A DNA stretch of 64,000 nt. Source: Eledone cirrhosa. Lineage: Eukaryota. A program made the position numbers and the translations under genes. The first letter of the stretch is position 1, and the number at the start of each line of letters is the position of its first letter. Of the stretch, positions 8,995-37,044 are shown one piece after another. The notes under the pieces were generated by a model. It saw nothing but the letters and a program-made list of their open reading frames with translations, was not told where the DNA came from and did no database searches. The DNA lies in the NCBI GenBank assembly GCA_964016885.1, contig OZ024745.1, positions 48,174,001 through 48,238,000 of the forward strand, in the 5' to 3' direction.

Positions 8995-11900
8995 TTTGAG
9001 AGGGTCATGCTGCCAATAAAAACACATGCACCTGTTGGTTTTCACTTCAATTTATTATATATATATATAGTAAGAATATTTTCAAAACAGCGAGTGGGTT
9101 TGAAATTATTAGAAATGTAAGCTATCGCCGTATTTTGACTAAAGAAATTAAAGAAATTATTTAGCCTGATAGTGGGGTTAAGAACCCTCGGAGAAATGGA
9201 AATACTCATCTTTTTCCATTTCTCCGAGGGTTCTTAACCCCACTATCAGGCTAAATAATTTCTTTAATTTCTTTAGTCAATATATATATATATATATATA
9301 TATACATAAACATACATGGCATGTTTTTATGATTTGATTATTACAGATTATATCAAAAGGAAAAGTTTTGTTAACAGATAAAAAGTCAAGTACCCATAAT
9401 GTTTGGAACTTTGACGTCGACATCACAAGTGACATGGTTCCCACTGCAAAATTTTTGGTCTATTATTATATGGAAAACAAAATAACAACTGCTTCCATAA
9501 ACCTCGATGTATATGATGTATGCCCATTCATGGTAAAATTCATTTAACTTCTGAACATCTCAACTTCCTTGTCTTAACTCGCATTTTTGTTGATAAAATT
9601 CCACCCCATCAACATTTATTTATGTATGTATGTTATCTCTTTCTCTTAATTTCGAGTATATTTTTGACCGGCCATCTTCCTGGTGGCAAGGTTGCAAAAG
9701 AAAAGAAATTGTCATCCCTTGAATCGCAAGAATGTTTTGCAAATTTTGAAGGTGCCAGCTATCGCAGCCATTTCTAGACTATGAATTAGGGAGCTGCGCT
9801 CTTTGTCCACAAATCCAAGTTCAGTCATACTTTGGTCCAAGCGGGTTGGTATATAACCCGTAGCTCCAATAATGATGGGTATGAAGCTAAAGGTGTATCT
9901 TGGATACTGGATTTGTAAACTCCTCATCAATGGTCCGTAGATGTCCTCCTTCTCCTGTATTTTTCTGACAACGTTTACACAAGTGGGCAGCTGATCTCCA
10001 CAACAGAACACGTTTTCAATGTGTGGTCCCAAACAACAATATCAGACCAGTTGTGCTTTGATTTAGTGGCAGTTTTTATTTTCAGGTTCCACCAGTATTC
10101 CTTAGTGCCATCTGTCTCATTATATTCTTCCTCGTTTGCTTTTAATTTTATTTTCCAAAGTGTGTTCCAGATGGTTCTAGCTATCCCATCGCGTCTCATG
10201 GGGAGGTAGTAGCGAGTTGTATGTATGTATGTTTTTGTTTTTTGTCCTGCAGCGTGTCCAAAATCACCCTCTTCACCAAGTAAACTTGGTGGGGTTGACG
10301 GTTTAGTCGCCGACGACCAGACCTTGCAACAGGTTGTACTGGGTTACTTGTTACCAGTAGCATTCAAGAGTGACCCGACAAAAAACAAAACCTGACAAAG
10401 GGCGGAAGAACTCATAAGAGTCAACGGCCAACAAAAAGTGTGTAAATATGTATGTATATGTGTATATACATGGGTGCATGTGTATGTATATGCGCGGGGA
10501 CATAGAAATAGTCAGGCTGGACACCCGATCGCGCGGTTAAACCACTAGGAGTGACTGACCCCTAGCCTTTGTCAGGGCATTCTTCTAGGAGAAGGCAACT
10601 CAGGAAACTGGGATAACCCCAATATAAAACCTACGGCTCAGTAGTTACCGATGATGTTGATCTTTTCTTCTTTTCGGGTTATAGCTACTGTCGCTCAGAG
10701 ATTGGGATTGGCTCAGTGCACAGTCTTTCCTCACTTTAAAAAATATCTTCACGCACAGGCATTGCACGATAGAATTAATTAATAATTATTAATAATGTTA
10801 TATCGTGCAATGGCCATACTCGATAACGAGGGGGCAGCCATCATGTATGTATGTATGTTTATGTATGTATGTATTTTCTTGTCTCTCTTTTGCTAATTAT
10901 CTCATGTGAGGTAACAATTATGCTCCATCCTGTTATTCATCCCTGGGCTGTGACTAATCTATTTTGCCTCATTACTTACACTTTGTCTGGTATGATTCTA
11001 AACAGCCACCGTGATAATTTTCCCAGTGCCTGGGATACACTCTGAGCTTTCATAGTTACCAGTCATAAAATACTGAAAACTCAAATTTCCTTTGATATTA
11101 GAATGAATGGCTGAATATTGAAAAGTGTTTATTCCATTTGTATCGTCAAATATTTGAATTTACTCTTTTACCTGTACCAGCCATCCGGCTGAGGCCATGC
11201 TGGGGCACCGCCCTTGGAATTACAACATTTTCTGATGTGACACAGTATTTCTTCTAACATAAATCATCATAATCATCGTTTTTGCACCCATTTTTTCCAC
11301 ACTTGGATGGGTCTTTCGTCACGTTCCTTCATTATCTCCTCTATAAGTCAGCGATTTTAGATTAGTTCTCACCAATTCTTCTCAGGTCTTTCTTGGTCTA
11401 CCTCTACTGCAGCTTCCTTCTACTGAGATTTCCTGCCACTTCTTAATCTAGCGATCCTCATCCATGCACATGGATCTTTCTGCTGTTATGATGTCATCAT
11501 CATCATTTCATCATTTTATTTTACGTCTGCTTTTTCCCTGCTTGCAAGGGTGGGACGGGAACTGATTCTGGCTTGATTTCTACAGCTGGATGCCCTTCCT
11601 AACACCAACCTCATTTACAGTGAGTGCTAGGTGCTTTTTTGCCGTGGCACCTCCACAACCACTTTGCAGTGGAATCTCATTTCTACAGCTGAGTAAACTG
11701 GAGCAATGTGAAATAAAGTGTCTTGCTCAAGGAAACAACACATCACCCGGTCTGAGAATTGAACTCACGACCTTTCGATTGCAAGGCCAATGCTCTAACC
11801 ACTAAGCCATGTGCCTCCATGATGTGTACGTAATAAAACAAACAGCACAAATAGACGGTTGAAAGAAAACAAATAAAATAAAATAATAGAAGAGTGGGCC

Positions 11901-13847: not shown

Positions 13848-16800
13848 CTATATCTATATATATATATATATATGCCACAAAACATTTTGTTGAATGTTTT
13901 AATGATTCCACTAATCCACCTCCTTGGACTGGTTCTTTATTTTATTGACGACAAAAAGATGAAAGGCAAAGTTAACCTCAGTGGTATTTGAACTCAGAAT
14001 GCAGAGAGCTGTAACAAGGCATTTTATCCAATGCTCTGATGACTACCAAAGATATTCTTTTACTTGTTTCAGTCACTAGACTGTGAACATGCTGGAGCAC
14101 CTCCTTCATTTAGTCAATCATCACCTTGACATAAAAGCAAAAATTGAAATTAACCAAGTATTGTTTCGATAATGAATAACTGTTAAATATTTTGCATTTC
14201 CAATGTCATTTTCTTGCTAAACGAATTGAGAGTATATAATTAACTAAACTCAGTAATGTTTTGTGTTTCTAGCATGTTTAATTCATTTTCCTTTTAGATA
14301 TACACAGATAAAAAGGAATACCATCCCAAGGAAAACATTGAGATAGAAATACATGGCAGAGCTGGTCAATATGTGGTATTATCATTTGTGGACAAGGCTA
14401 TGAATTACCTTAATAACAAACACAGAATCACAAAAGAATTTGTAAGTAAATATTTTTTCAACATTATATTAAATTGATCATTTTTCTGAATTACAAAGAC
14501 CTATGGGAGTAATATTTATCTCCAGTTTCCATTGCATTAAACAGATGAAAAATAAATATAATCCTGGATAGGACACTGCTCTATTGCTGGTAGCTTTTCC
14601 ATCAATCTCACAATAGTGCTGCTTTTTACAGATGTGAATTGTAAAGATAAATGGACCACCTTGGTTTTGATGATAAATGTTTCAGTTGTCCAGTCAATGA
14701 AATGGTCTATCATAAAACTGATGTGTTAGTGGCTGAGTATTTTACAGACCCATGTACTTTTAACATAATTCTCAGTTCAGCATGATACAGTGTATGACAA
14801 GGCTAGTCCTTTGAATTACTGACAAGCTTTCTAACAGTTTCTGTCTACATAAACTCACTCACAAGGCTTGGGTTGACCTGATTTGAAGCAAACTTCTTAA
14901 CTATTTGGTCATGCAGTCTCCATTAGTTGTGAATTATCCCGCAATACCTACCTACACCCACTGTCCTGTTGTTTATTTTCTGAACAGCCACTATCATATA
15001 TTTTAGTTATTGCCTGTTTATTCCATTTCTATCATCCATTCCATCTCCAATTTAATTTACAGTATTTTCCAACATTACACAATGTATTGCATCTTAATAG
15101 AGGTTGTGAAAGCCCTATTTCAGACAATGGAAAAACAGTCTATATCTAAATGGAATTTGAGAGGTCAACCAATAACTTCATTTGGTATAAAGAGGATGGC
15201 TAATAATTAGCTTAGTGATTACAAAACAACATAATAATGGTGCATTTGCAAATGGGCGATTATTCAAGAGCCAAAAGTACATGAAAACAGCGCTTTGGCA
15301 GCGTCATTAGAATGTTGGATAGAATGCTTTGTGATACTCATTCCAGTTCTCTGCACTCCTTCAGTCCAAATCCTACTGAAGTCAACTTTGTCTTTCATCT
15401 TTTAATAAAAAGACTGATAAAAAATGTACCAGTCTAGTACTGAGTGCAAGTCTTCCTCTATATCTCTTTCTCACTTCCTTTCTATCACTCTTTCTTACCT
15501 TCTCTGAAAGAAATGAGCCGTGTTCAGACTTGGAGAGAAGATAGGCTTCCCAGGTTTAAAGTATCCAAGACATGCTGTATGTTACTATGGCACTCCTATG
15601 TCTCTATCAGAAGTTATGAGTCCATACATACTAACTTACATGAATTGCCTATGTATTACTTTTAGTTTTCTTTTTTTTAATTCACATTTCTTAATAGCAA
15701 AGCTATAGGTTAATTATGGCCAACCCTGTATATGCTTCATAGATGAACACAAAACAGATTCAAGGATCTGAACTGTTTAACAATGAAATAATAAATTCTA
15801 CAACACATATTTTAGATAAATTGTATATAAAATGAAATTTTAAAGTATATTATATGAAACTGTTTGTTATTTTTAAAATTGTGTTCTTTCTATGGATTTA
15901 CCATTTGTAGGTAAGAGACCAAATGCTTTTGAATCTTGAAACAGATGGAATGTTGAACAATGATGTAAGTTTAGAATATATCTTTTTTTGTCAGTTTGGA
16001 TTTTAGTTTTTTTTTTTCCTCTTTTCTATAGAAAATTTTTAATTTATTAATTAATCTATATTTTCAAATAATTCAAATTGTAGTATCGTTAATTAAAATG
16101 ATTTCTATGAGAACTTATGTAACCAAGCTCATTTGAGCCCCCAGCTCATTTGAGCACCGGATAGAGTATGGAAATGTAGGTAAGTGAGATGCAGGCTCAC
16201 AACTTATTTGAGAGGTCAGTAGCTTTACTTGCATACTGGCTTGGCCTGTTATGACCCATCCAACCTTTACTAGCAGGAAAAACTGATGTTAAATGATGAT
16301 GATGATGGATGCATGCATCATATTATCATTTATAGAGCTGTATTCATCTTGACTTTCAGCACTTTTCTTTTTAATTAACTCACCTCAAGCAAGGCAATAA
16401 AGCTACTAAAATACAAAGGTTTGTTGAGAATGGAAAATGCAAGGGTTTATTGAGAATGGAAAAGGACAAAACAGAGAGAACATAATGCAAGAAAAGAAAA
16501 AAAGATGATGATTGATGTTACTTTTGGTGGTGGTGAGGAGGAGGCAAAGGGGGAGGAAGGCAAAAGAAGGAGGAGGAAGTGGAGGAGAGGCAGAAGGACA
16601 GTTGTTGTTGATTTGTATTTGAACTTTTCATAATTCCTCTTTGTTACATCATTCACATTTTTTTCACAACTGATTTTCCATGCTGGCATGGGTTGGATGG
16701 GACATTTTGAAAAAGATTTTGATGGTCAGCTACTCTTCATTTTGTCAACTATTTTTATTTAATATGCAAACATATGGTGTACTCATTCTAAAATAACAAA

Positions 16801-19800
16801 TGTTTTTGTTTTTTTGATATTCAAAATATTTTCAATATAACAAGTATTTCAAGGCCATTTTCAATATAACAAGTATTTCAAGGCCATTTTCCCTGCTAAA
16901 GAAGTTAGCTTCTCAGGGCCCCATAATAAGCTTCTCCATTTTTCCCTCTTGTTTGCATATGCCTTTCCAATGCACTGGCTTTCATTTCCTTCTTCATCTT
17001 TAGCCATATCTTTCTTGGTCATCCCCTTCCTCTACTTCCTTCCTCAGTCACTTTCATCCTTCTCCACTACATGATCCAACCATCTCATTCCATTTCTCTT
17101 CACAACATTCACTTGAGTGTAATTTATTAATGACTTTTTTTTTTTTTTTTACTTTGTAGAATTTTAAACTATCTATAGTTCAGGATTATGACAGAACATT
17201 CTTGCAGAGAAAGAAAAGACAAGATGCAACAATATCCCGTGAGGTTCCTGTTACCACTCCGAAGCAATTTAATCATTTGGTATCTAATATATTTTAACTA
17301 TTTCATTGTAAATGAGCTTTTTAAATGAACACTTACTCTTCCAATTTATCCACTAAAAATACTTTATAAAATTTTGAGTCAAAGAAAGAAGAGCAATGCC
17401 TATGATACCTTCCAGGGCCTCCAAGACCTGTGGAAGTGAGGGAGGAAGGTATCTTTAAAACCAGAGACCTGGCTCAAATATTTTCAACAGAGCAGGCTTT
17501 GCTAAAAGCACCCAAAGTGCACCTGGGTGATGGATTAAGTCTACCATTCAAGAGGGTGGCAACAAGATTTGAACTCAAAATACAAACAGCTGGAAAAAAT
17601 ACTGCTCTAACGATTTGGCCAGTCCAAACTTAGCAGACAGAACCCCAAAAAATACTGGAAGGCATTTTATCTTAGATTCTAACAACTCCACCAATTCAAC
17701 ATCTAATTCATCATCATCCTCATCATTACCATCATCATCTCCAACAGCAATAATAGGACAGTTGTAACCATGTGGGTAAAAATTTGATTTCCTAACCATG
17801 TGGGTCTAAGTTTGATCCCACTATTCAGTACATTACAGTAGAAAAGGAGTAGACATAAACTCCATATGGTGTACACAATGTAAACCTTGGGTACACAAGA
17901 GATGTAGTGGAATAATGGGTAGACTAACAAGAAAGGAAGACTTTGTATGTAGAAGATGCACAGGAGTAATCAAGGGGAAGAGCAGCATTAATATAAACCT
18001 CTTCAAGTCAAGAGAAGGGTCCATAGAAGTGGTTGGTAGCTTTTGCTGTCTAAGTGACATAACCAGCTGTGGAGGAGGGTGCTCTGGGAGCATAATAGCT
18101 AGAATAAGGATAGGATGGAAGAAGTTTAGAGAGCTACTCTCACGGTTGACAACAAAAGGTTTCTCCCTACATACAATATAATGCCTGTGTGAGAAGTGGA
18201 ATGCTGCATGGTAGTGAAACATGGGCAGTGGCTGCAGAGGACATGTATAGACTGGAGAGAAATGCTCTGATGGATGTGCAATGTAAATGTGAGAAAAAGG
18301 CAGAACTTGGATGAACTGAAGGAGAAACTGGGTTTAAGGGGAATCCAAGGTGGTGTGCTGGAGAGAAGACAGGATTGGTATGGGCGTGTGATGTGCATGA
18401 ATGATGATTGATGGGTGAAGAAGTGCCAGTAAATGCTAGTAGAAGGGAGCTGCAGTAGAGGTAGACTGAGAAAGACCTAGGCAGAGGTAGCGAGAGCTGA
18501 CCTTGAATTGTTGAGAGTCACAGAGGAGATGACAAAGAAACGCAGTAAGTGGATATACACTGTGCTGAGAAGGAACTATCCAACCCATGCAAGCATGGAA
18601 AAACTGACCTAAAAACGATGATGATGATGAGCTGAGGTTTGAATTTTGTTAGATATTCACTTACTCATTTGACCTATGAGGAATATTGTATCCTGAACTT
18701 ACTAATAACAACCTTAGTCTTGACTAAATAGTTTTGTATAATAGTTAAATAGGAGATAACATGATCTATGGTGACAGTAATTATGTTTCATTTGGCGAGC
18801 TTCACTGTTACAATTAACTTAATGTTCTCAATTAGTGCACTATTCCATGTCCTGGTAAGTATAACAATTATTACGACACTCCTATGTGATTGCTAATTGT
18901 TCTAACTGCTAGATGGTTTCCTGGAATACTATTGTGTCAGTTTTGTTCATTCTTTATGTTATGGTCCTATTTTCCAACTAATGATGTATATTTATTTACC
19001 CTTTTTTTGACACACACACACACACGCACACGCACACACTACCTTGAAAATCTCCTGCTAGATTTGAAGGTGTTTTCACTGGGATATTTGTTAAACTGGT
19101 TTTCCTTCTTGTTTGTTAATCCTGTTTGTATATCAGATACAAATTCATTGTTTGCCCATATATAACAGAATTATGATTCTGTCATCAACTTTAACACCCT
19201 AACATTTTAGACACAATTATATCTCGGCAACTTTGCCACTCTCCTACCCCTTCCCCCTTTCACATTTTGCTTCTCATCTCTGACCTCTTAATTTTGTTTT
19301 TTTCATGCCATAGTATAAGCTATTAATTTGAGAAAATGATTATAGGTTTCATGCAGCTGCCACTATGGAAAAGCAGTGTTGATTGATGTGCTATTAACAT
19401 TACATGATTAAAAATCTCATACTAATTAAAGCTGAAATGAGTTGTCATAAAAATTTGTGAAGATAATTTTTCTAATGATGAAATCATAGGTGTAGATGAA
19501 TGGCTTGTGAGAGCTATACAAGTTATGTATAATGAAACAGTCAGTAAAGTTAAAATTAACAATGAATATTGTGAAGAATTTAGTGTAAAAGTTGGTGTTC
19601 ACCAAGGCTCTGTCCTTAGCCCCCTCCTATTTATTATTGCCCTTCAGGCTATAACAGAGGAGTTCAAGACCGGCTGCCCATGGGAACTCCTATACGCAGA
19701 TGATCTAACGCTCATAGCTGAATCAATGGCCGAACTAGAAAAGAAATTCCAAACATGGAAGCATGGCCTAGAATCAAAAGGCCTTAAAGTTAACTTGTCT

Positions 19801-21091
19801 AAGACTAAAGTCCTAGTTTGTAGAAAGGAAAATAAGGCACAGGTACCCTCAGGGAAATGGCCTTGCTCAGTGTGTAGAAAAGGAGTAGGCAGAAATTCAA
19901 TTTTATGTCCCAAATGCAAAGTATGAGTACATAAAAGATGTAGTGAGATCACAGGTAAACTATCTAAGAACGTAGACTTTATATGTGGCCGATGCTTAGG
20001 TGCAATAGGTAGCAAGTGTCCACAGGATACTAGCCCTTTCTATTGCCCAGATGGTCCTATAGAAATAGTAGACACTTTCCGTTACCTGGGTGATGAAATC
20101 AGCAGTGGTGGAGGGTGCTCTGAAAGTACAGTAGCCAGAGTCAGAACGGGATGGAAAAAGTTCCGAGAGCTTATACCGCTGTTGGCCACAAAAGGTTTCT
20201 CTCTAAAAATGAAAGGCAGATTGTATGATGCTTGTATACGAACAGCAATGTTACATGGCAGTGAGACATGGGCATTGTGTGCAGAGGACCTGCGCAGACT
20301 GGAGAGGAACGAAGCATGCATGCTCCGTTGGATGTGTAATAGTAACATACGTGAACGGCAAAGCATAAATGAACTAAGTGAGAAATTAGGAATAAGAGGG
20401 ATCAGATGCTGTTTACTCGAGAGAAGACTACGTTGGTATGGCCACGTGATGCGCATGAAAGACGACAGCTGTATAAAAAAGTGCAGGGCGATCAAAATTG
20501 ATGGTAGTTACGGAGTAGGTAGACCCAGAAAAACCTGGGACAATCTGATAAATTCCGACCTTACACACTTTCACCTCTCTAATACAATGTCACTGGACCG
20601 ACATCTTTGGCGCTACGTAGTAATACAGAAGACCCACCTTGCCTATATACAAAGCGAAACCTACAGTCAGTAGGCACCTCTTAACCAAATATACACCCCA
20701 ATCCACTACCCCTACCCTATCCTCCCACTCCCACCAACACCACCCCCTCTCTATAAAGTTGGTACCACAACATCCAGTCCAAATAAATGAGATAAATGAG
20801 ATCGAGATCGTGTAGGTGTCACAAGAAAAAACACACAGTCCACGCTGTAATGTGGCCATGTAGGTAACACGGTAAAAAGTTCCCAGTTCCACACTGTAAA
20901 TGTGGTTGGTGTTAGGAAGGGCATCCAGCCGTAGAAACCTGCCAGATAGTCCTATATGAGCAAGACACAGTCACCCGACCAACCTTGCCTCAAGTGGGAC
21001 AATTCCCGTCTAACCCATGCTAGCGTGGAAAGTGGACGTTAAACGAGGATGATGATGATGATGATGATATAAAACTGAGGATGTCTGTCTC

Positions 21092-21124
<33 letters not shown>

Positions 21125-24100
21125 GTGCATGTGCACGCGAGTTTGTATCCCTAAAACTCGAGAAGTACCCAACCGATCTTTTTCAAACTTTACATGTGTA
21201 TTACTTATATTTCAGGGAGCGTTATGCACATAAAAAAACTCAATATTTTGATCCCCTGGGGCCCGCATTAGGAGAAAAACTGCATTTTTTCAGCTTTTTA
21301 GGGGTTTTTTGAGGCGTTACGTCAGACCGATTTCCTTGAAATTGTAACTATGTATTAGTCAGTCTCTTCTTCAATACCGTGAGCAAAGAAAATCCAACTT
21401 TTTAATCGTCTAGGGCCTGCATTAGGTGAAAAACTTCATTTTTTCAGCGTTTTTAGGGCTTTTTTGAGGTGGGTACGTCTAGCCAATTTTCCAGAAATTT
21501 CAAAGAATATTATGCACATAAAAAAAATCATTTTCTTGATCCCCTAGGGCCCGCATTTGGTGAAAACCTGCATTTTTCCTGCTTCATCGAGGAAAATCTT
21601 AAAGATTATCCAGCCATCAGAGTATTCGGTTTATTTTCTTTACATATTGTCGAGGCATGCAGTTTTTCCACGATTAGGTCTGTTGGCGGCCCGCGTTCCA
21701 AAATACCTTATCCCGTGCAATGCCGGGTACCACTGCTAGTGATAAATAAATTTGGTACAATATGTCACCAAAGTTAATGAGAAGTATCTAGAGCAATAAT
21801 TATACAAGGTTACAGGGCAGCAATTTGGCAGAGCCTCTGACAAATGCTTAGCAGTTTTTGTTCCAGTTCAGAGTTCAAATCCTGCCACTTGTCAACTTCG
21901 CCTTTCATCCTTCCAGTGTTTATAAAATAAAATACCAGTCACATACTGGGGTTAATTTAATCAATTTTCCCTCCTATTTATATTTGTAGATAGAAAATCC
22001 TCAAGTGCCTGGGAACTTTGAATATATGTTTAATGATAATGAAAATTTTATTGAAGATAGTAAGTATAATTTTATATACAACTAATCTCATATACTTTTG
22101 ATGTTATTTTACTTTTGCTTTAGTACTATTGACTTGGTTGTGGTGAAGTACGGACATGGTTTGAGATGACCCATCTAACCCTTGCTATCAGAGAAAACGG
22201 ACATTAAATAATGACGATATATTTTGCAAAGTGATTCAAAAGTTATTATCTCATTTATTCTCCCTTTAAGGGTTTGATAATCATCATCATTATCATCATC
22301 ATCATTACTGTTTAATGTCCATTTTCCACACTAGCATGGGTTAGACAAGTTGTCCTACTGTGAGACAAGTCAGATCAGGTGATCACGTCTTGCTCATACA
22401 GAACTATTTCTGGTTTGGTTTCTATGGCTAGATGCCCTTTCCTAACACCAACCTCATTTACAGTGTTGACTGGGTGCTTTTTATCATGGCACCAAAATGA
22501 CCAACTAACAGGTTATATTAGGTACTTTTTCATTGTGTCACAAGGATAATCATTATTGTTTGGCATAAACCTTTGTACCTATATATATCTTTCATGTGAA
22601 TTTCCCATATTTTTTATAAGTTGTTTATTTGAATTAATACATTGTTTTTGTTGACTTGGAGAAAGCCTTTGATAGAGTCCCCCCCGCTCCATTATCTGGT
22701 GGGCTCTTAGAAAACTAGGTGTTGATGAATGGCTTGTGAGAGCTATACAAGCCATGTATAAAGAAACAGTCAGTAAAGTTAGAATTAACAACGAATATAG
22801 TGAAGAGTTTAGCGTAAAAGTTGGTGTTCATCAGGGCTCCGTTCTTAAACCCCTTCTATTTATTATTGCCCTTCAGGCTATAACAGAGGAGTTCAAGACC
22901 GGCTGCCCATGGGAACTCCTATACGCAGATGATCTAACGCTCATAGCTGAATCAATGGCTGAACTAGAGAAGAAATTCCAAACATGGAAGCACGGCCTAG
23001 AATCAAAAGGCCTTAAAATTAACTTGTCTAAGACTAAAGTTCTAGTTTGTAGGAAGGAAAATAGGGCACGGGTCCCATCTGGGAAATGGCCATGCTCAGT
23101 GTGTAGGAATGGAGTAGGCAGCAACTCCATTTTATGTCCAAAATGCAAAGTATGGGTGCATAAAAGATGTAGTGGGATCACAGGTAAGCTAACTAAGAAT
23201 ATAGATTTTATATGTGGCCGGTGCTCAGGTGCAATAAGTAGCAGCAAGTGCCCACAGAATACTAGCTCATTCCATTGCACAGATGGTTCTATAGAAATAG
23301 TGGACACCTTCCGTTACCTGGGTGACAAAATCAGCAGTGGTGGAGGGTGCTCTGAAAGTACAGTAGCTAGAGTCAGAACGGGATGGAAAAAGTTCAGAGA
23401 GCTTATACCACTATTGGCCGCTAAAGGGTTCTCTCTAAAAATGAAAGGCAGGCTGTATGATGCCTGCATACGAACAGCAATGTTACATGGCAGTGAGACA
23501 TGGGCATTGTGTGCAGAGGATATACGCAGACTGGAGAGGAACGAAGCTTGCATGCTCCGCTGGATGTGTAATAGTAATATACGTGAACGGCAAAGCATAA
23601 ACGAACTAAGGGAGAAATTAGGAATAAGAGGGATCAGATGTTGTTTACTCGAGAGAAGACTACGTTGGTACAGTCACGTGATGCGCATGAAAGACGACAG
23701 CTGTATAAAAAAGTGCAGGGCGATCAAAACAGACGGTAGCTCCGGAGTAGGCAGACCCAGAAAAACCTGGGACGACTTGATAAATTCCGACCTCACACAC
23801 TTACACCTCTCCAAGACAATGTCACTGAACCGAGATCTTTGGCGCTACACAGTAATACAGAAGACCCACCTTGCCTAAGTACAAAGCGAAACCTACAGTC
23901 AGTAGGCACCTCTAACAAAAATACACCCCCGTTCCACTACCCCCACCCTATCCACACCACCCCTTTCAATGTAAAGTTATGTTGGTACCACAACATCCAG
24001 TCCAAAACAAATGAGGTCGTGTAGGTGTCACGACAAAAAAAACACAGTCCACGCTGTAATGTGGCCGTGTAGGTAACACGGTAAAAACCTCCCAGTCCAC

Positions 24101-27100
24101 ACTGTAAACGTGGTTGGTGTTAGGAAGGGCATCCAGCCGTAGAAAACCCGCCTGACAGTCCTATACGAGCAGGACAACCAATCTTGCCTCAAGTGGGAAA
24201 ATTCCCGTCCAAACCCATGCAAGCGTGGAAGATGGACGTTAAACGATGATGATGATGATGATGACATTGAGTATTTATGACAGCACACTTATGCTCCCAC
24301 CAGTTGTATTTACATCCTTTTGCCTCCTTTTGTTTTCAGATTCTGCTGACATCTTACCTGGTGAATTTTATGATCTGAAATTGAGGTGATATATATATAT
24401 ATTCCAAAATACTTTATGAGAAATTGTTTTGCAGAAATATGCAGTTTGATTATTGTGGATATTCAAGATAGTTATGATAGCAATGAGAACCTCAGTTATT
24501 TGAGTTGATAGTGTGGACCTTCCAGCTATATATTAAAGATTTCTTTTGATCAACTATGTTGTATCCACTTTGCCTTTCATCCTTTTGAGGTCAATAAAAA
24601 AAGTACCACTCATTTCTCCCCCCCCCCCCATAAAATTACAACAACAACAACAAAAAAACAAGTTGGCCACGTTCAAACCTGGAGAGGGTATGGGCTCTGC
24701 CCGGTTTTAAATGTCTATATCACTTATATCATAACAGCAACTCTATGACTTCATCAGGAGTTACAGGTCCATACATGCATAGAAAAGATATCTAATTCTC
24801 AATAGTTCATTCACTTTGTTGGCAAATTGACAGAATCATGAGAGGCAAGGTAAAATATCTTCAGGTATTTATTCCGGCCCTCTGTGCTGTGAGTTCAAAT
24901 TCGCCTTTCATTTGATATAATAAAGTATCAATCCATAACAGGATTATTGGAGCATTGGGCATGATGGCTTTAGGTATTTGTTCCAGTTTTTTTGGCTCTG
25001 GGTTCAAATCCGGTTGAGATCAAATTTGTCTTTTATCCTTTCAGGGAAAAGATATAATAAAGTATAAATCTAAGGCAGTGGCTTGACCTAATTGTTAGAG
25101 CATTGGTCAAGATGCCATGCAGTGTTTTTTTTTGGCTCTTTGCATTCTGAGTTTAAACCCTACTGTGGCCTACTTGGGTTCACACTGCCCCTTGACTCTT
25201 TGGTACCTTTAGCAGGGTTCACTCTGTTATAAATAATTGGGTCAGGTTTCCAATCTGAGGATATCTTCCGTCCTTATCAGTCTTTCAGGCCCTGTATAGG
25301 TTTGGGGCATTGGCCCCCACCACCCTGATTAAACAGTAAATTAGAACTATAGAAAAAAAAATGATTAAGCCATTTCATTTCATGTCTTTCACCAGTTTAC
25401 TGTGCGATAACATCTTCTGCAGTTCATGTAATTGTTACAAATGGTTTGCATCCTCAGATGTTTCTAATGTTAATCAACATTGAAAATATATAAAATGATG
25501 ATAATGATGAAGAAGAGGAAGTGGAGAAGGAGGATGATGATGATGATGATGATGAAGAGGAGGAGGATGTGTATGTTGAGCATGATTAGGATGTGAATGA
25601 AGATGATGATGGCGATGATAAAATAGATGGATTTTTCTTTGTAAAATTTCTGTAATATTTACATTTATAAAATGCCTTCTAAAATAATTTCTTCTGCCTT
25701 TTTTTTTTTTTATTTCAACAGAAATGATGGTATTTCCAAAATGAATTTCTCTTTACCAGATTATATTACAACTTGGGAGATTCAGACATTTGGAATTACT
25801 GATACTCATTTCTGTGTGGCTGAATTATTTGAAGTAAAAACTTTCAAAAGTTTTATGGTCAAACTGAAATTTCCTGAGTTTATAAAAATATTTGATTATG
25901 TTGCGATCAAGGTTTTTCTATATAATTATAAGAATACAGGCCTAAAAGTAAGTTCCAACATTACTTTTATATGTTAATGCTACAAGCTTTGCAATAGGTT
26001 TGAAGGTGAATATTTAAAATTGTACAAAAGTAATATTTAACATTGTTCAGATGATTGTATGTATATATATGTATGCATTTATATGTATGTATGTATATAT
26101 ATGTATGTATTTATATGCATGTATATACGAGTATATACAGTAATTTTGTGACACACTATAGTGTTGCAACCCAGTTTGAAAGCCTCAGCTCTAAATAATC
26201 AATCATAAAAAGTAATTCATATCTATATTTAATACCAGGAAGACTCCATAACTTGATAGCTTCTACTACCTAGGTGACTTAATTAGCAGTGGAGGAGGTT
26301 GTTCTGAGAACATAGTACACAGAATAAGAAAACGATGGAAAATGTTCATAGACCTCTGGTGACAACAGAAGGTTTCTCTTTATGAATGAAAGGTTAACTG
26401 TATGATGCCTATTTAACTGTATGATCCCTCGAATTCACTTATATAAGAAATTGACATTTATCCTTGTAGTTTTATGCAACAAACAAACAAATACATTTGT
26501 ATCTTTCTTTATTCCTAGGTAAAACTTACTCTTCATAAATCAACAGATCTTTGTTCATATAACAATAAAAAGGGACATTCATATCAAACAACTGTTAATA
26601 TTCAAGCAAATGAGACTACCTCTACCACTTTTGTGATTCGACCTATTTATTCAGGATATTTGCCCATCAAAGTCTCTGCTAAAGTGATTGAATCAAATTA
26701 TAATGAAATTGTTGAAGAGGAAATGTTTGTTCACAAAAATACTTCAAATGTAATTATTCTATTCCTTTATCTAACATCTCTGTTTTTTCATTGGCCAGAT
26801 GAGTATTAGCAATTAACTGTATTTCAATAACAATACTGAAACACACACACATATATATATATATATATATGAGAAAAGTCAACAAGGAACATGTAGTTTT
26901 GACACTATAGTGTCAAAACTACATGTTTTCACCTATATTTGAGTTCTAGTAGAAAGCAGGGTAAGGGAGCACTGTCTTGATAATGACCAGAGTCAGAAAT
27001 GACATTGTCGACAGTTACTCAGCCTTAGCTTCTGCTAGAATCTGCTGAAGACTTTCAAAATGTTTATTTGTAAACATACTGTATATCACTAGATATACAA

Positions 27101-30100
27101 AATACTCATACTTACATATATATTTAAAAAAAACAATGAAGTTTTGTTTACATGTAATCACCTACATTATATATATATATATAATTGGTGTTGGATGCTT
27201 AAAGCGTCCATATGCGGTAGGAGGGCGTTTGAGCACTCGATGCTCTCATAGAGCAGAGTATTATATATATATATATTTATATATTTATTTTTATATATAT
27301 TGTTTCTTTAACAGTCTCTGAAAGATAATGAAAATAATCTCTCATCCGAAATTACCGTTCCAGTTGTGAAAATTGAAGATAATGAAATATCATTCAAAAA
27401 CCGTATGTAGGAAATTGTATTTGATCAAAATATTGACATCCTTATTAACTGCCTTCATTTTGATATTTTGCACTGATTTTAAATGTAAAAAGATTTTATA
27501 AATATATTTTTCAATTTTAACACTAAAAGATCCTATGTACAAGTATCTCATTAACATTTAGATCATAAGTTTATATATGTTAAATATATGACAGTGTAGA
27601 GTGGTGAGTTGGCAGAGTTGTTAGGATGTCGAATTAAAAATGCTTTAGTGTTTGTTCCAGCTCTCTGCACTCTTATTTCAAACGAAAGGCCGTTTCTACT
27701 GTCTCCAGCAATCCTGCAAACTGCTATCTTTCTTCCTGTCATTCCAATAGCAGTGCACATTCTCCAAATTGACTGAGCCAAAATCAACTGGAAATAGCTA
27801 TGCCTGCCATCCTTTCTCTCTGCACTTCTGCACAATATCTTGGTACTTGGCACTCTTTTATTTGAAATAATCCATAATTCTATTCTGTTCTTTTTTCAAT
27901 TCTGATTTTTAAATTTTTTATTTTCTTTTTGTACTAGGTTATTTATTTAGCAGTATTGTGAAAAGTGCCTTAACTGAACCTGAGAAATTGATACTTATGT
28001 CATATGGATCTGGAGAACAAAATATTATTTATATGGCACTAACAATTTATGCTTTGAAGTATATCAGAAATACTATCCAGATGGATGAAGAAATATTTAA
28101 TAATGGGAAGAAATTCATCAGAATGGGTAAAGTTGGTTTTATATAACATATATCTTAGGTGGTGGCTTAACAGAATCGTTAGAGCATCAGACAAAATGTT
28201 TAACAGTATTTGTTCCAGGTCTTTACATCTGAGTTCAAATCCTACTAAGGTCAATTTTGTCTTCCATCCTGCCAAGTTTCATAAAATATTGTGTAATCTG
28301 TAAATCCCTATATTTTCTTAAAATGGTGACAGAACACCTAGGAAATCCTATGTCTGACAACCTCCCTAATATGCATTAAGTATTTAGTTCCATCCCTTTA
28401 CATTTTGAGTTCAAATCTCCAGCTGAAGTTCATTTTGTCATTCATCCTTGTTGAGTCAATAAATTACAGTACCAGTCAAATACTGGAATTATTATAATGA
28501 TTATATAGGACAATGGATTAGCAGCATCAGAGCATCAGACGAATGTTTCATAGCATTTATTCCAGCTCTTTACATTTTGAGTTCAAATCTTGCTACGGTC
28601 AACTTTGAATCCTTCTGAGATCGATAAAATAAAGTATGAGTCAAGTAGTGGGGTTGATATTATTGACTTTCGCATCTCTCCAAATTTCTGTCCTTTTAAA
28701 TATCTCAGAAATCAGTATGTAACATATATAATACAGTATTATGGAATTATTGCATAATATATCTAAATACAGAATAACTCTTTAAATTCATTGAATTAAT
28801 TATATTATATTCTTGTTGTAGTGTCCTTGACTGGCCCTAATCTAACAGACTTGTGATCAAAGGTATTCTAGTCTTGATAATCTTGTCTTTTTAGGATATC
28901 TAAGACTAAGTTATCTAATGAATCCCACCTTTGGAGATGGTAAGGGTATCATTTGAAAGAGATTTAGCTGCTATTCTTCATATGTTGAGCATTCATATAG
29001 AGTTTCCCTCTTCTCGATATAATAGTTTCCTTGGACAGAACTAAAGTAAAAAGCAGGCCTAGGTAACTTGCAGCACTCAGAATTCATGTTACACTTTATG
29101 ATTTTTTTTGTATAGCATGGTATGATTATATAAACATATCAAATTTTTACGAAAATCTTGTAACCTAATTCACTCTTGCTTTGTCGCAATCAAATTTTTA
29201 GGATTTGCTTAGTGTAACATATGGCATTGTCTGTACTACATACAATGTTTTTAAAATTAATTATTTTTTTAGAAGTGTTGTCTGATTTTCCTAATTTATG
29301 GTGAACAATATTTCATAAAGTCTGCTGCTAGAGAAAAGTTGCTTACGTCTGGGGTAAAGAATAGCTGAATTCATAAAGGTCAATATACTAAGATAGAAAT
29401 AAATATTTGTAATTTAAATCTTGTGACTTTAGAAATTTATTTTAGTACGTCCTAGCAGAATGGCCTGGCGTTGCTCGGGATTTGCTCTAGGGTTCTTATA
29501 TATTTAATATATCGAGCCTCGTGAAATAAATGTTTGTTTATATTTTGTTATTGTGTATGCAAAAATATCTGTACACGAATATATAATTATATATATATAT
29601 TAAAATAACAGATTAAAGTTTAAGCAAAGATTCGCTGCTTTCACTCTTAACAGGATCTTCTGAAACTAAAAAAATCAATCTGTGAACACAGAAGTACATA
29701 TTTCGAAAAACGTTACACACTATATATACACGCACTATATATACATATATACACACATATAGCGTCATAATGTCGTAATGCAGACATCCAGACATACAGA
29801 CAGATATTATAAGGGCGTGACGTTGTAGCTATGTATCTATCTAAAAAGAGAGACTAAGAATTATAGAGAGAGATCGCTTTTTCGTCTAATGCAGTCTCTA
29901 GGGCATTGAAAATTTGAAATATGTTTTGCTCACAACACTCGCACGGCCATAAGTATTACATGTGTAAAGTTTGAAAACAATCGGTTGGGTGGTTCTCGAG
30001 TTTTAGGGAATCAGACAGATAGACATTCTCTGTTTTAGATATATAGATGACATATAGAGAGAGCTTCATAGAGGAATTTTGCAAGATGGAACAAGACTGC

Positions 30101-33100
30101 TTTCGGAATCCCTAAAGAGAGGGGTGTGTAAAGGAGCTTCTCTCAAGATTCAAAAGAGCTAAGAGGAAATGACAAAAGAAGGCAGCAAGTGGGAAGATAA
30201 TGTGCTGGAAAAGACCTGTCCAACCTTTTCAAGTATGGAAAAGCAGAAGTAAAAATCATGATGATGATGACGACGATGGTGATGATGATGTTTAACCTCT
30301 TGTTCTCAGCAATGCGCAAATAAAAAAAGTTTTCATTTTTGGAAATGGTTGTGTATGAATAGAGGGACACAACCCAGATATGAAGGGAGTTAAAAGGGAT
30401 GATTTGACAGGGATAAACTACTCTTACAAACAAAAATATTTGGATTTATTGTAGAAATTATTTAATTACATCATTCAAAATGTTGAATAAATTTTTTTTA
30501 AATAATCAAATTCATATTTTTCAGGTATTGAAAAACAGATGACTTATAGAAAAAATGATGGCTCTTATTCAACTTTTGAAAATACGGAATCAAGCACATG
30601 GTAATGATAAAGACTATTTGCATTAATTGCATTAATAACAGCAAAATGTGATTCAAGGCTTAATATTACTGAATGCATGAAATAACAATCATCATCATCA
30701 TCTTCACTATTTAACGTCTGTTTTCCCAGCTAGCAAGAGTTAGATGGTCTTCACAGAGTGAATCAGTACTCAAGTAGGGAGCATACTGATCCCACACTCT
30801 ACCGAGTACAATTTATCATGACACTAGCACTAGTGAGGTTGTTCTGTCTTTGATGTAGCTGAAGAGTCCTCCCAACCATTTGTTTGGCAGCTATTCTACA
30901 ACTGAATTCTCTTTCTATCACCAACCACTTTACAGAGTGAACAGAGGTTGGTAATTGGATATATATATATATATATATATACAATATATTAATAAATGGA
31001 AACTATATTTATAAAACCATAATTATTTTATTATATATATTTCAAGGGCGACCAAGGTAAATTATGGTGCGCTGAAGTGAGCGAAGAAATAAATTTTATA
31101 TGGTTGAGCAATCAGAATGTAAATATTCATTATGTTATGTTTATATTATTTATAAAGGTAAAGTTAAAAAATTAAATTAATGATAAAAAATCTTTACAAA
31201 AGAATAGTTATAATTTAGTTAAAAATTTAACCAGAAATTTAATTAAAATTTAATTAGAATTTAATTAAAATTTAATTAATTACAATAAGATATATTACAA
31301 AAAGAAGTATTCAAAAATTTAAGATGTATTAAGGTTTAGATGGGTATGTTATGTTATAGGTTATAAATTATTTGAATGTATAGTATTTTGCATTGGAAAA
31401 AACCAAGTATAGTTTAATTGATTAAAGTAAGTTTGGCTAAATATAATTTTGCCAGAGTTTATTAATAGTTATAAATCAAATCTTAAACATCAAATATTTA
31501 TGGAGATTTACGAGAGTTTAGAAAGGAAAAATTATTTAATTAGGAGTATATATTAAAACAATTTACAATTTCAACTATAAAAATTGAGATTATAAAAACA
31601 ATAAGGAAGTTTAAAGGAAGTTAAAAGGGATTTTTTAAAAACCCAAATGACTCAAAGGATAGATAAAAATCACTATGAAAGTTATAAGAAGTTATAAAAA
31701 GTCATCTTAAAATATAATTAAAATATTAGACATAATTATTCTACATATATATAAATAATATAAATGATTGGATATATATGAAAATATATAAGTATTAAAA
31801 ATAATTGGATATATATGAAAATACATAAGTATTAAACATGTTTAGAATATTGGAAGATGTAGGGGTAATGGAAGATATGAAAATATTGGTTTTTCGTATC
31901 TTTCAAAAGAATCTTTCAAAAACTTAATCATAAGTTTTACAAAAATTTCCAGGTGTTTCGAAGGAAATTTTTAGAATTTTTCAAAACATTTTCATAAAAG
32001 AATTTCTGGAGGTAGGATTGAAAAGTGCAATAATATAAGTATTAGAAAGTAAAGGTTTTAAGGAGTAAATTAAAATTAATAAGTGTACTTTATATATTTA
32101 GGAAGGTTAGAATTATATTGATATATATAATCTGAGGGAAGAGATTATAGGTGTTTGAATGTAGAAAACGTTAAGTAAGGAAGAATGAACATATATTACA
32201 TTTTATATATATATCTAAAAGTTGAGTTTAACGGATGTTTACAAGAACTAAATAAATTATTCCGTAAATTAATAGAGTTCTTAGATTTTAGTATAAAGAA
32301 TATTTCCTCTACGCAAAGGCTACAAAATTTGGATAGAGCTGTGTAAGATGGTGCTTTGGAGACAATATTCCAAGATAAAGAGTAGTTTATATTCTTGGAT
32401 TTTAAATTCCATAAGTTGGATAGAGAAGTTGAAGATCTTTTGGTAATATTCGTAAAGGAACATCTATGGTTATTGAAACGAGATTTGAAGTCTGCCAAAG
32501 TAGAGCCGACATAGTTGAAGGAATTATCTTTGGTTTTGACATTACAATTGTATACTATATTTTTAACTAAACAGTTATTATTTAGAGGACAGTTAGATTT
32601 ATGTTTTATAAATATAGTTTCCATTTATTAATATATTGTATATTTACTCCACTAACTTGTTGAGTGCTTTATATCAGTTATAAAAATGTTTAATCATCAT
32701 CATCATCATCAACGTTTAACGTCCGTGTTCCACGCTTGCATGGGTTTGGATGGGGGTAGTCCCACTTGATGCAAGAGTGATTGTCTTGCTCGCATAGGAC
32801 TGTCTGGCAGGTTTTCTACAGTTGGATGCCCTTCCTAACACCAACCACATTTACAGTGTGGGTCTGGGAGGTTTTTACCGTGTTGCCTACACGGCCACAT
32901 TACAGCGTGGACTGTGTGTTTTTTTGTCGTGACACCTACACGATCACATTTGTTTCGGCCTCGATGGCGCGGCACCAACATAACTTTACATAGAACGGGG
33001 TGGTGTGGATGGGGTGGGGGTGGTGGTGGTGGGACGGGGTGTATTTTGTTAGAGATGCCTACTGGCTGGAGTAGGTTTTACTATATATTTTTAGGTAAGG

Positions 33101-34698
33101 CGGGTCTTCTCTGTTACTGAGTACCGCCAAAGGTCTCGGTCCAGTGACATTGTCTTGGAGAGGTGTAAGTGTGTGATGTCGGAGTTTATCAGCTCGTCCC
33201 AGGTTTTTCTAGGTCTGCCTATTCCGTGACTACCGTCTATCTTTATTGTCCTGCACTTTGTTATACAGCTATCGACTTTCATGCGCATCACGTGTCCATA
33301 CCAACGTAGCCTTCTCTCGAGTAAACAACATCTGATCCCTCTTATCTCTAATTTTTTCCTTAGTTCGTTTATGCTTTGCCGTTCACGTATATTACTGTTA
33401 CACATCCAGCGGAGCATGCAAGCTTCGTTCCTCTCTAGTCTGCGTATATCCTCTGCACACAATGCCCAGGTCTCACTGCCATGCAGCATTGCTGTTCGTA
33501 TGCAGGCATCGTACAACCTGCCTTTCATTTTTAGGGAGAACCCTTTAGCAGCTAATAGTGGTATAAGCTCTCTGAACTTTTTCCAACCAGTTCTGACTCT
33601 AGCTACAGTACTTTCAGAGCACCCTCCCCCACTGCTGATTTTATCGCCCAGGTAACGGAAGCTGTCCACTATTTCTATAGAACCCTCTGCGCAATTGAAA
33701 GAGCTAGTATTTTGTGGGCACTTGCTGCTACTTATTGCACCAGAGCACCGGCCACATGTAAAATCTATGTTCTTAGTTAGCTTACCTGTGATCCCACTAC
33801 ATCTTTTATGCACCCATACTTTGCATTTAGGACATAAAATGGAGTTTCTACCTACGCCTTTCCTACACACCGAGCACGACCATTTCCCAGAAGGGACCGC
33901 CGCCTTGTTTTCTTTCCTACAAACTAGTACTTTGGTCTTAGCCAGGTTAATTTTAAGTCCTTTTGACTCTAGGCCGTGCTTCCATGTTTGGAATTTCTTC
34001 TCTAGCTCGGCCATTGATTCCGCTATGAGTGTCAGGTCGTCTGCGTATAGGAGTTCCCATGGGCAGCCTGTCTTGAACTCCTCTGTTATAGCCTGAATAT
34101 ATATATATATATATGATAAACACAAAACGTGTTTGCATTGCAACAGACAAAGTTAGCTATTAATGAAATAAACTAATTAAAGTGAATACAATTTGTCTGT
34201 CTCGATATAAGTCAATAAAGACAAGCTTATATTGGCAAAGGCCGTGATTCCTGGACAAATCTAAATTTCAAAATCCAAACCCGCTCCGTAGATGAATTTG
34301 AATTTCGAAACCTAAATATGTTTCGCAACGATGGTACGTGAATTGAAAAATAAAGAGAATCGAAATGGAATTGAAATAAAAAGTGAAATATCCAAATCTT
34401 CTGTGCTTATCAACAGGAACCCAGTAAAATTAGCATATCTCACCATCAAAATATTTTGCAGGTCTGACTACACATGTGTCTAGCCAGGCCAAAGTAGCCG
34501 TCCCGCATTCCCGGTGCTAGAAATAACAGCCGTTTGTGCGTTATTAAAGATCAGCTCTACAGTTAAGGAGCAATATACTATATTATAATTTGAGATTAAA
34601 CTCTCAGTCGTTTACAATAAATCAGCTCCAAGAAAGGCCCCTTTCTTGGAGCTGATTTATTGTAAACGACTGAGAGTTTAATCTCAAATTATAATATA

Positions 34699-34732
<34 letters not shown>

Positions 34733-37013
34733 CACAAGAACTTGCAAATAAATACAGTATGGAAATAGAGAAATTGTTTTTATTATTTCTATTAGGTTGA
34801 CAGCATTTGTATTGAAGATATTTTGTGAGGCATTAACTCTGCAAGAGATAGACAGGTCTGTCATATCGTCAGCATTTCTATGGCTACTTAAGAAACAAAA
34901 GAACAATGGTGCATTTAAAGAAGACAAATTGATTATTTATAAAGAAATGATGGTAAGTTTGTGATTTGGGAATTTCTAATATTGATTTGTTTGTGTTTTT
35001 AATTATCATTTTTTTTCTCAAATTATATACAAAACATTATACTATATATTTTTTTATTCAATTAATTTAAATGCCTGTATAGAGCTAGCAAGCCATGACA
35101 GACTATGAGAGGTGTCTAATAACCTTTCCAATTAAAAATCAAAAACAAGAGAGAAACAAAGAGAAAAAAGAAAGAAAGAAAATGAAACACGAGGCAAAAG
35201 AAACAAAAATAAGAAAAAATGTTAAAAAGCAGGGATAGCTATAAAGCAGTTAAAAGTTTCTGTTGAATCTTTTCATAGCCTCCTTATACTGAAAGATGTT
35301 GTTTATGATTGGTGGATCCTTGACAATATTTTGCACCTCTTGGTGAGTTTTTAAAGACAAATTTCAAAATGTCCTCTCTCACAGACTGGTAGTTTTTATA
35401 TTGGAACAAATAGTTCCAATAAAGTTTCTAGGTTGTCTCCACAAGAACATAGAGGTGACTCTGTATGGCCTGTTCATGATAAAATATAGTTCATGGTTGA
35501 AGCCAAAATAACATTAGTTTATTAACATACATTTTAAATTATAATCTTCCAACATAATTTTATATAAGAACCATATGTGGAAGTATTATCATGATAATAA
35601 AATGTTGAATCCATGGCAAATTTCTACAGCTGGATACTCTTTTTTATGCCAACCCATACTTTTCAGTATGGTAAGAGATTAACCAACTTAACAGCATTTT
35701 GGAGGTAAAGACACGCACAAATACACGCATATATACAAACAATGGGCTTTCACAGTTCCCATCTACCAAATTTATTCACAAGGTATTTGTTGGCCTGTGA
35801 TTATAGCAGAATACACTTAGCCAACAACATGCTTTATAAGAGAACTTCGAAATCACACAACCATAGTAGTAAAATAATAGTTTTGTAAATTCATCAAAAT
35901 TCTTTATTAATTAATGGAAATAGAGTATATTTCTTTAAAAGTACAGTCATAAAAGGGTTGAAAACGTATTTCAGCAATGATAATATGCATATATATATAT
36001 ATATAAAAAGTAAAAAAGCTTAGAGATATATTTAAAGATTATTTTTTTCTACAGAATGAATATTTTTATAATTGTTACATCAAATAGATTTAAAGTTTCA
36101 ATTTATATGTCAATCTTATCAAATAAAAAAAGGTTGTTTTCATATTCTGTGGGCAGTTAGAACATATGTGAATTTTCTGACAAAATGTCTTCTTATATAT
36201 AAGCACTTTGTGAAGTTTGGTGGTGGTGATAGAAGTGGAGTTGAACAGATCCGTGTTCAATTGATTCACCAGAAAATTCTCTTGAAACAGTAAATTTCTA
36301 TTCATAAATAATGGACTAAATGGCATTTCTTTATTCTGTAATTTGTACACACACACAACAAAGCAAAGAAATGCCACTATATATATATATATATGTGTTT
36401 TTTTTTGTTTTTTTTTAATCCAGGGAGTTATTTCTGATACTGGTTTAACAGCCTTTGTTTTAATTAGTTTCATGGAGTGTAAAGAAAATTTCCACCAAGA
36501 GGTAATTGTTTATTTGTTGCATTTTTAATAATGAATTATATTACATATATGTTAGTGTGTGTTTTTATTTATATATATAAACACACATGCCTCTGGTCGC
36601 ATTATTCATGATATCACTATTCCTTTAGTTTTTGTGTTCACTCTGAGAAGAGATTTGTCAATTACTCACTCATTGAGTGCTTTGTGACAGTCTCCGATGA
36701 TTCGATTGTTTATCTGCAAATTCGATTATACTCACTATTATATATATATAAATATACATATTAAGCTAACAGAAGTCTGATGAGCTTTTGATTCCAGAGT
36801 CAGGCCCGATCTATAGAGTTCGAACCTTGAACTGATTAATTGCAAAACATGTAACATACCTGAATAAACGTAATGAAAATTTGACACCTCATCCATAATT
36901 ATTATTAATATTACACTCTACTTGGTACAACGCCTGAGTACATACTGGAAACTACGCATCGAATGCTCACTTTGGTGAACCAACAGTAACTTGATGTTTC
37001 ACTCCCTAAAATT

Positions 37014-37044
<31 letters not shown>

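Follow-up and report, generated by a model that had tools for sequence, protein, structure and literature searches.

The 64,000-nucleotide stretch analysed here in full (hereafter the window) comes from the octopod Eledone cirrhosa (GenBank assembly GCA_964016885.1, contig OZ024745.1, positions 48,174,001 to 48,238,000, forward strand) and carries part of a gene derived from complement component C3. The gene is transcribed and intact, and comparison of its predicted protein with relatives marks it as a paralogue of C3, born by duplication in cephalopods before the split between cuttlefish and octopods. What it has lost is the activation machinery as a whole, comprising the anaphylatoxin domain (ANA), the thioester cysteine, the catalytic histidine, the shield of MG8, the disulfide of LNK, all of MG4 and the integrity of CUB. 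The protein therefore probably acts as a non-covalent binding protein and not as a trigger of complement. The reading that we favour, with a probability of about 0.5, is that it cannot be activated, does not attach covalently, and presents its TED on loose tethers in the manner of iC3b and C3d.

The preliminary description of the window had reported about 69 residues, none of them cysteine, between an RKKR site and the sequence LPDYITTW. The number is exact: RKKR lies at 17208–17219, LPDYITTW starts at 25753, and the exons 17160–17279, 21990–22059, 24340–24385 and 25722–25947, which have GT–AG ends and agreeing phases, encode 69 intervening residues with zero cysteines. The protein model is 65% identical to the orthologue of Octopus sinensis (P0001; P numbers denote our protein records), 54% to that of Argonauta (P0008) and 35% to that of Sepia (P0009), as expected for octopod DNA. 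The 5' exons of the gene lie upstream of the window, and the final exons were not located by position 64000. The parts of the gene are as follows.

3671–60185, plus strand: the C3-derived gene, in part; 28 exons coding for 1103 residues that span MG3 through the first third of C345C, all exons with GT–AG ends and free of stops.
4993–5980, plus strand: exon of the MG3 end (4993–5163) and a short remnant exon in place of MG4 (5873–5980); 69 residues between anchors versus 151 in the canonical Argonauta C3.
9521–9523, plus strand: cysteine aligned with Cys557 of Talpa C3 and absent from four of four CD109 rows; it corresponds to the beta-chain partner of the C3 inter-chain disulfide.
14298–15964, plus strand: MG6a exon (14298–14441) and shortened LNK exon (15911–15964) whose cysteine pair is gone, from spliced contig 17 of run X4 and alignment.
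17160–17279, plus strand: end of LNK, RKKR (17208–17219) and the first 20 linker residues, covered by contig 17 as far as 17275.
21990–22059, plus strand: predicted linker exon, phase 0/1, 23 codons, cysteine-free, with a pyrimidine-rich acceptor and a GTAAGT donor.
24340–24385, plus strand: phase 1/2 exon where the end of alpha'NT and the FPESW motif would be expected, the motif itself being lost; 67% identity over 15 residues to P0001 residues 613–627.
25722–26749, plus strand: MG6b and MG7 exons (25722–25947 and 26519–26749) with LPDYITTW and the alpha-chain cysteine of FCVAE (25813–25815); PF00207 at an expectation value (E) of 1e-20, and spliced contig 21.
27315–27402, plus strand: short remnant of the first CUB segment, matched by an 88-base insert in contig 21; 58 residues between anchors versus 96.
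27938–43730, plus strand: TED exons (PF07678), with GSGEQ for GCGEQ at 28006–28020 and tyrosine for the catalytic histidine at 34938–34940; the most conserved part of the protein.
53347–60185, plus strand: MG8, anchor and start of C345C, by alignment; the three residues that presumably shield the thioester are L, I and F in place of M, Y and Y.

Orthologues without ANA are found in O. sinensis, O. vulgaris, O. bimaculoides, Argonauta and Sepia pharaonis. Between common anchors their linkers measure 52–72 residues and contain no cysteine, versus 82 residues with six cysteines in the canonical Argonauta C3 (Argonauta hians GAB1607029.1, P0056), whose ANA is unusually compact. Since the linkers of the window and of Octopus fall only about 30 residues short, the ANA may have decayed into the linker instead of being cleanly deleted. 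The linkers vary in both length and sequence and are rich in proline, serine and threonine in Octopus and Argonauta; exon 21990–22059 of the window aligns loosely with the linker of O. sinensis. The Argonauta orthologue (P0008) carries a run of eight prolines within its linker. The basic site reads RKKR in the window and KKKR, KKRR or RKRR in orthologues, and there is none in Sepia. Of the acidic alpha'NT-like stretch noted in the preliminary description, the acidic residues before MG6b do exist in the window; however, they are not conserved in the orthologues.

The possibility that an ANA exon lies hidden in the linker introns was addressed with profiles built from 73 ANA segments. These gave no match among the 556 six-frame peptides of 17280–25721 (best E about 1), and no Cys-Cys pair occurs in any phase-compatible open candidate exon (0/65, 0/44, 0/31 and 0/4), in agreement with the earlier impression that the introns hold no cysteine-rich exon. 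With held-out sequences the profiles recovered six of six whole domains (E<=1.9e-5) and six of six second halves (E<=0.008), and first halves only weakly (E 6e-5 to 0.17). An ANATO search of 17280–24340 had been suggested as a check; its Pfam model, PF01821, turned out to be uninformative, and it is our own profiles that speak to the question. In each of the 17 canonical mollusc C3s that our pattern could parse (eight further molluscan rows were left unparsed), six cysteines lie between the basic site and FPE.W, and PF01821 matches in none of the 17, nor in the canonical Argonauta C3 at E<=1; the six-cysteine ANAs that it misses include those of the canonical C3s of Argonauta, Patella and Pinctada, with P0056, P0165 and P0173 among the records concerned. 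The lack of a PF01821 match in a mollusc is therefore meaningless, and the model is unusable for calling the ANA absent in this phylum. The accessible text of two papers on Biomphalaria likewise describes thioester variants and ANATO domains missed by software (PMC9363628, PMC7016707). Two candidates were examined; the first was rejected and the second not adopted. The best tblastn match of the canonical Argonauta ANA (E 0.12, 18041–18091) falls inside a decayed long interspersed nuclear element (LINE). A 19-base AG...GTAAGT stretch at 18836–18854, with six codons and two cysteines, has a weak pyrimidine tract and no counterpart in orthologues; sharing phase 0/1 with exon 21990–22059, it could serve only as an alternative to that exon.

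Support from transcripts comes mainly from run X4, whose kind is unrecorded and which we take to be RNA because its contigs skip introns; all runs belong to one study, possibly of the source sample, and three of the four were compared with the window. Contig 17 joins 14441 to 17160 through a 54-base insert, the size of exon 15911–15964, and ends at 17275. Contig 21 joins 25720–25947, 26519–26749 and 27938–28129, with an 88-base insert the size of exon 27315–27402. It starts at 25720 with a 30-base overlap with an unspliced piece. We interpret this as a fork at which another upstream route also ends in AG; exon 24340–24385 would fit such a route, though this does not prove it. The spliced X4 contigs listed thus back the flanking exons, and the joins 17279–21990–24340 fall outside them. 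X4 cover is absent at 18870–19336, which carries no weight either way. Orthologous proteins encoded on Logan contigs of about 4.5 kb also have cysteine-free linkers; at only that length these contigs can only be spliced transcripts. The comparison with orthologues supports the absence of the ANA more strongly than the X4 contigs do.

The loss of the ANA is accompanied by losses elsewhere in the protein. All five ANA-less cephalopod rows carry GSGEQ (GSGNQ in Sepia) at the thioester site and tyrosine or asparagine for the catalytic histidine (serine in Sepia in another alignment). None of the five has methionine at the MG8 shield position, versus all 17 canonical C3 rows shown; in the window the shield residues are L, I and F. 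We take M1378, Y1425 and Y1460 of human C3 to be the shield, an assignment for which a literature search gave no confirmation. In octopods the LNK cysteine pair and the FPESW motif are gone as well. From the end of MG3 to a fixed strand of MG5 there are 46–70 residues in ANA-less cephalopods versus 151 in P0056, a difference of one whole MG domain. PF17789, the MG4 model, matches P0056 (E 1.5e-19) and is absent from P0001, P0006, P0008 and P0009; in 125 intron peptides of the window an MG4 profile found no match, where the MG3 control was itself weak (the true MG3 exon scored E 0.048). Judged by these lengths in the orthologue records, MG4 is deleted; the exons 4993–5163 and 5873–5980 lie outside the RNA comparison. 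Two records vary in the neighbouring MG5 region: an annotated isoform of O. vulgaris (P0002, CAI9718466.1) is without the 62-residue MG5 exon, which corresponds to 9347–9532 of the window, and the Argonauta record P0008 is without a 21-residue exon next to it.

The first segment of CUB has lost about 40 residues. From MG7 to the thioester motif there are 56–58 residues (75 in Argonauta) versus 96 in the canonical protein, and the deletion is bridged by a spliced contig. Structure prediction, another check suggested at the outset, was carried out with AlphaFold2 on the C-terminal 991 residues of the O. sinensis orthologue, the N-terminal half lying outside the model. TED, MG6, MG7, MG8 and C345C fold, whereas both halves of CUB (295–333 and 627–691) and the linker (60–135) have a predicted local distance difference test score (pLDDT) below 50; in a canonical C3 control with nearly the same alignment set the CUB strands mostly reach 76–89. 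CUB is thus predicted to be degraded and no longer intact. Foldseek matched the model to C3 and C5 folds; on the overall conformation it gives no verdict (predicted template modelling score 0.48).

In the trees, the cephalopod proteins without ANA come out as a single clade whose sister is the canonical Argonauta C3. This grouping has a FastTree support of 1.0 (49 rows by 892 columns), and in an LG+C20 tree of 27 of the 49 rows the approximate likelihood ratio support (SH-aLRT) is 100 for the ANA-less clade and 99 for its sister relationship. It follows that the ANA was lost after a duplication within cephalopods and before cuttlefish and octopods separated. Three other groupings are rejected by the approximately unbiased (AU) test: a union with the ANA-less gastropod proteins known as type I at p 1.6e-4, one with CD109 alone at p 1e-38, and one with CD109 and CPAMD8 together at p 1.6e-8. 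A stretch in the Patella type I protein P0145 that looks like NNFRL had suggested orthology with that group; the trees and the AU test rule this out. Both cysteines of the inter-chain disulfide are present in five of five ANA-less cephalopod rows and neither in four of four CD109 rows. PF01759 gives weak C345C matches in Sepia (E 0.0076) and Argonauta (E 0.033) and none in the Octopus proteins; nevertheless, the cysteine pattern aligns, the modelled tail is folded and rich in strands, and the octopod proteins terminate one residue past the last cysteine (the window itself holds only the start of C345C). In the ESM Atlas the whole protein falls into C3/C4/C5 clusters, and the linker is uninformative.

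The orthologues are named either "complement component 3" or "CD109 antigen-like" by NCBI. Taken at face value, the latter name (P0001, P0007 and P0008, with "CD109" for P0147) would make this a protein of the CD109 and insect TEP class that never had an ANA, and GSGEQ is also present in Biomphalaria TEP-3 according to the accessible text of PMC9363628. The tree, the AU test, the C345C-type tail and the two inter-chain cysteines all speak against this explanation, and the CD109 of squid is described, in the part of PMC4361686 available, as a different gene with GCGEQ and a predicted glycosylphosphatidylinositol site. We regard a CD109 identity as the most improbable of the alternatives and conclude that databases mislabel this C3 paralogue. 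Scarcely more credible is the explanation that the gene model is at fault and that a diverged ANA exon is hidden in the introns. The unconfirmed joins 17279–21990 and 22059–24340, the weak sensitivity of profiles for first halves and for this lineage, and the two cysteines at 18836–18854 leave some room for it. However, neither a profile match nor a Cys-Cys candidate exon was obtained, and the orthologues on record, from three species of Octopus and from Argonauta and Sepia, are equally cysteine-free at this place, those on the Logan contigs of about 4.5 kb among them.

No part of the protein is as conserved as its TED. The TED of the window is identical to that of O. sinensis at 253 of 287 positions (88%), versus 291 of 459 (63%) for the MG domains. 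The ratio of TED to MG distance is 0.26–0.31 in three octopod pairs versus 0.63–1.24 in all 12 control pairs (C3, C4, C5, type I and CD109), and among four octopods 219 of 293 TED columns are invariant compared with 46 of 120 in MG8. MG8 is not conserved along with TED (56% versus 82–90%). Our favoured reading, that of a non-activatable protein displaying its TED, runs as follows. The protein would be secreted and, in this species, cut at RKKR, its two chains being held together by the conserved inter-chain disulfide. It would be incapable of activation, of covalent attachment and of building a convertase. The TED would hang by loose tethers at the former place of CUB and would offer a non-covalent binding surface to a receptor, a regulator or a target. 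Shape and logic would be those of vertebrate iC3b and C3d, except that the form would be encoded directly by a gene. In vertebrates, cuts in CUB yield iC3b, in which the TED is left flexibly attached (PMC10092904), and iC3b is unable to bind factor B (PMC4451739), as far as the accessible portions of these papers go. More tentatively, and we would not bet on it, coleoids may encode in a separate gene an iC3b-like protein, the counterpart of what complement regulation finally leaves behind, with ANA, thioester, MG4 and CUB dismantled and the TED displayed as a strongly conserved ligand that signals to a TED receptor, or dampens it, without a cascade. If so, the protein could serve to fish out a TED/C3d receptor, which would be the first for a mollusc.

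Several observations weigh against the reading we favour. In three deeper cephalopod pairs the TED/MG ratio rises to 0.51–0.62, and the three octopod pairs share branches and are not independent; relaxation of the MG domains could also lower the ratio, just as constraint on the TED could. An alignment poor in close relatives may explain part of the low confidence of CUB in the model, and CUB's second segment retains its length, with 57–66% identity among octopods. Foldseek places the model slightly closer to native C3 (2a73_B, TMq 0.41) than to C3b (2i07_B, 0.35), with a root-mean-square deviation above 20 A to both, though the method could not separate native from activated forms even for the control (0.48 versus 0.37). 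As for the phylogeny, the tree has a single canonical cephalopod C3, only one of its four ANA-less cephalopod rows passes the composition test, and the AU test was run on 23 rows under LG+F+G4 with 5000 resamplings, below the number that the program requests. Finally, binding rules learned in vertebrates may fail in cephalopods.

Two other explanations accept the gene as it is and assign it a different function. The protein could be compact and native-like, with the cysteine-free linker acting as a protease-sensitive bait whose cleavage switches the shape and exposes a binding site, as in C5, which has no thioester, or in TEP and A2M proteins. A short bait-like linker had already been considered in the preliminary description, and the linker itself speaks for it, being variable (52–72 residues), rich in proline, serine and threonine in Octopus and Argonauta, and disordered in the model. 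The slight native lean of the model also fits, and the conservation of TED could mirror contacts within the molecule. However, a trap mechanism would lack its thioester, and in the accessible text of PMC9156758 inhibition by monomeric A2ML1 depends on the thioester; because it is absent, the protein does not qualify as an A2M-type protease trap despite its variable linker. The same text has the native state of the family rely on packing of CUB, TED and MG8 with an aromatic pocket in MG8, whereas here CUB is degraded and MG8 has diverged much more than TED. We consider a bait function possible, if rather doubtful. Alternatively, the protein could be a constitutive platform like C3b or cobra venom factor, as was also proposed in the preliminary description, binding factor B and cleaving canonical C3. 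The missing ANA, the RKKR site, the acidic residues before MG6b in the window, the retention in orthologues of MG2, MG6, MG7 and C345C, and, in octopods, the end of the protein one residue after the last cysteine would all suit such a platform. Neither the acidic stretch nor the basic site is conserved, however, and Sepia lacks the latter altogether. In mature cobra venom factor it is the TED that is shed and CUB that is kept, the reverse of the pattern found here. Human proconvertase contacts MG2, MG6, MG7, CUB and alpha'NT, and the substrate C3 docks through MG3–MG7 with MG4–MG5 central (PMC12922740, accessible text), so that the deletion of MG4 and the degradation of CUB, with its first segment short and the domain unfolded in the model, affect the very surfaces that serve convertase assembly and substrate docking in vertebrates. 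A constitutive state like that of C3b or cobra venom factor is therefore unlikely, and this proposal is not supported.

Outside the coding sequence, 5114 of the 8442 bases of the linker interval (about 60%) match elsewhere in the window. The LINE sequence that had been recognised in the linker introns is borne out by two copies with RVT_1 matches.

19487–21064, plus strand: LINE copy coding for reverse transcriptase, within the first linker intron; RVT_1 E 6.7e-16, 88.6% like 22716–24264 over 1590 bases.
22716–24264, plus strand: LINE copy with reverse transcriptase and a PHD-like finger in the second linker intron; RVT_1 E 2.6e-14, PHD E 1.4e-5.

Together with a copy at 32693–34097 they form a family of three copies that look 5'-truncated, are 84–90% alike, and carry a PHD-like finger after the reverse transcriptase. 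An open frame of 400 codons survives in the copy at 22676–23875. Other features of the window are an intronic 40-base tandem array at 40364–41071 (about 16 nearly perfect copies) and a kilobase of 19.8% GC at 31001–32000. A separate C3-like fragment with GCGEQ, P0101, from a 17.5 kb Logan contig, resembles none of the references closely.

Loss of the ANA in a C3 paralogue is not new. The accessible text of Peng et al. 2022 (PMC8960428) describes gastropod type I C3-like proteins that have lost the alpha-beta site, the ANA and the thioester, leaves their function open, and lists five cephalopods with one C3 each, the Octopus accessions differing from this gene. In the openly accessible literature we found no description of the cephalopod paralogue (two accessions are without papers), nor is it treated in the available portions of PMC4199593 and PMC13365339. 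What appears to be undescribed is that such a paralogue arose separately in cephalopods, that it lost MG4 and CUB, and that its TED is conserved without a thioester. A second, separate origin with the same coupled losses (ANA, thioester, histidine and MG8 shield) suggests that a route from C3 to a non-covalent protein has been taken more than once. The cephalopod gene goes further in deleting MG4 and degrading CUB, both of which are retained in all non-cephalopod rows compared, and thereby provides a natural test of whether an MG ring can stand when MG4 is gone, and of the role of a TED that lacks its thioester.

The canonical cephalopod C3 (P0056) shares with the paralogue the start of TED, the FCVA motif, the domain order, the inter-chain cysteine pair and C345C; its six-cysteine ANA, GCGEQ, histidine, MG4, LNK cysteines and full CUB are all lost or degraded in the paralogue. 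The gastropod type I proteins, represented here by Patella P0145, Babylonia P0231 and Elysia P0209 and P0206 as assigned by features, are likewise molluscan C3 paralogues without ANA, thioester and catalytic histidine and with a changed MG8 shield. However, they have a separate origin, retain MG4 (105–108 residues) and mostly a long first CUB segment (40–73), are described without an alpha-beta site in the text available, and show no special conservation of TED (ratio 0.64–0.77). Within that group, Patella P0145 does retain RLRKR at the usual place, despite the published description. C5 and the bivalve C5-type protein ScoC3-like-3, insofar as the latter is described, are members of the C3 family without a thioester, but they keep a six-cysteine ANA, and the ratio for the C5 pair is 0.84, with no special conservation of TED. 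C3b and cobra venom factor share the missing ANA and the retained C345C and MG6–MG7, but they need the CUB and MG4–MG5 surfaces, according to the same partial account of the convertase. Vertebrate iC3b, described in the accessible part of PMC10092904, has no ANA, no live thioester, a disrupted CUB and a retained TED, as does the protein of the window, but it is a product of proteolysis, is covalently anchored, and retains MG4.

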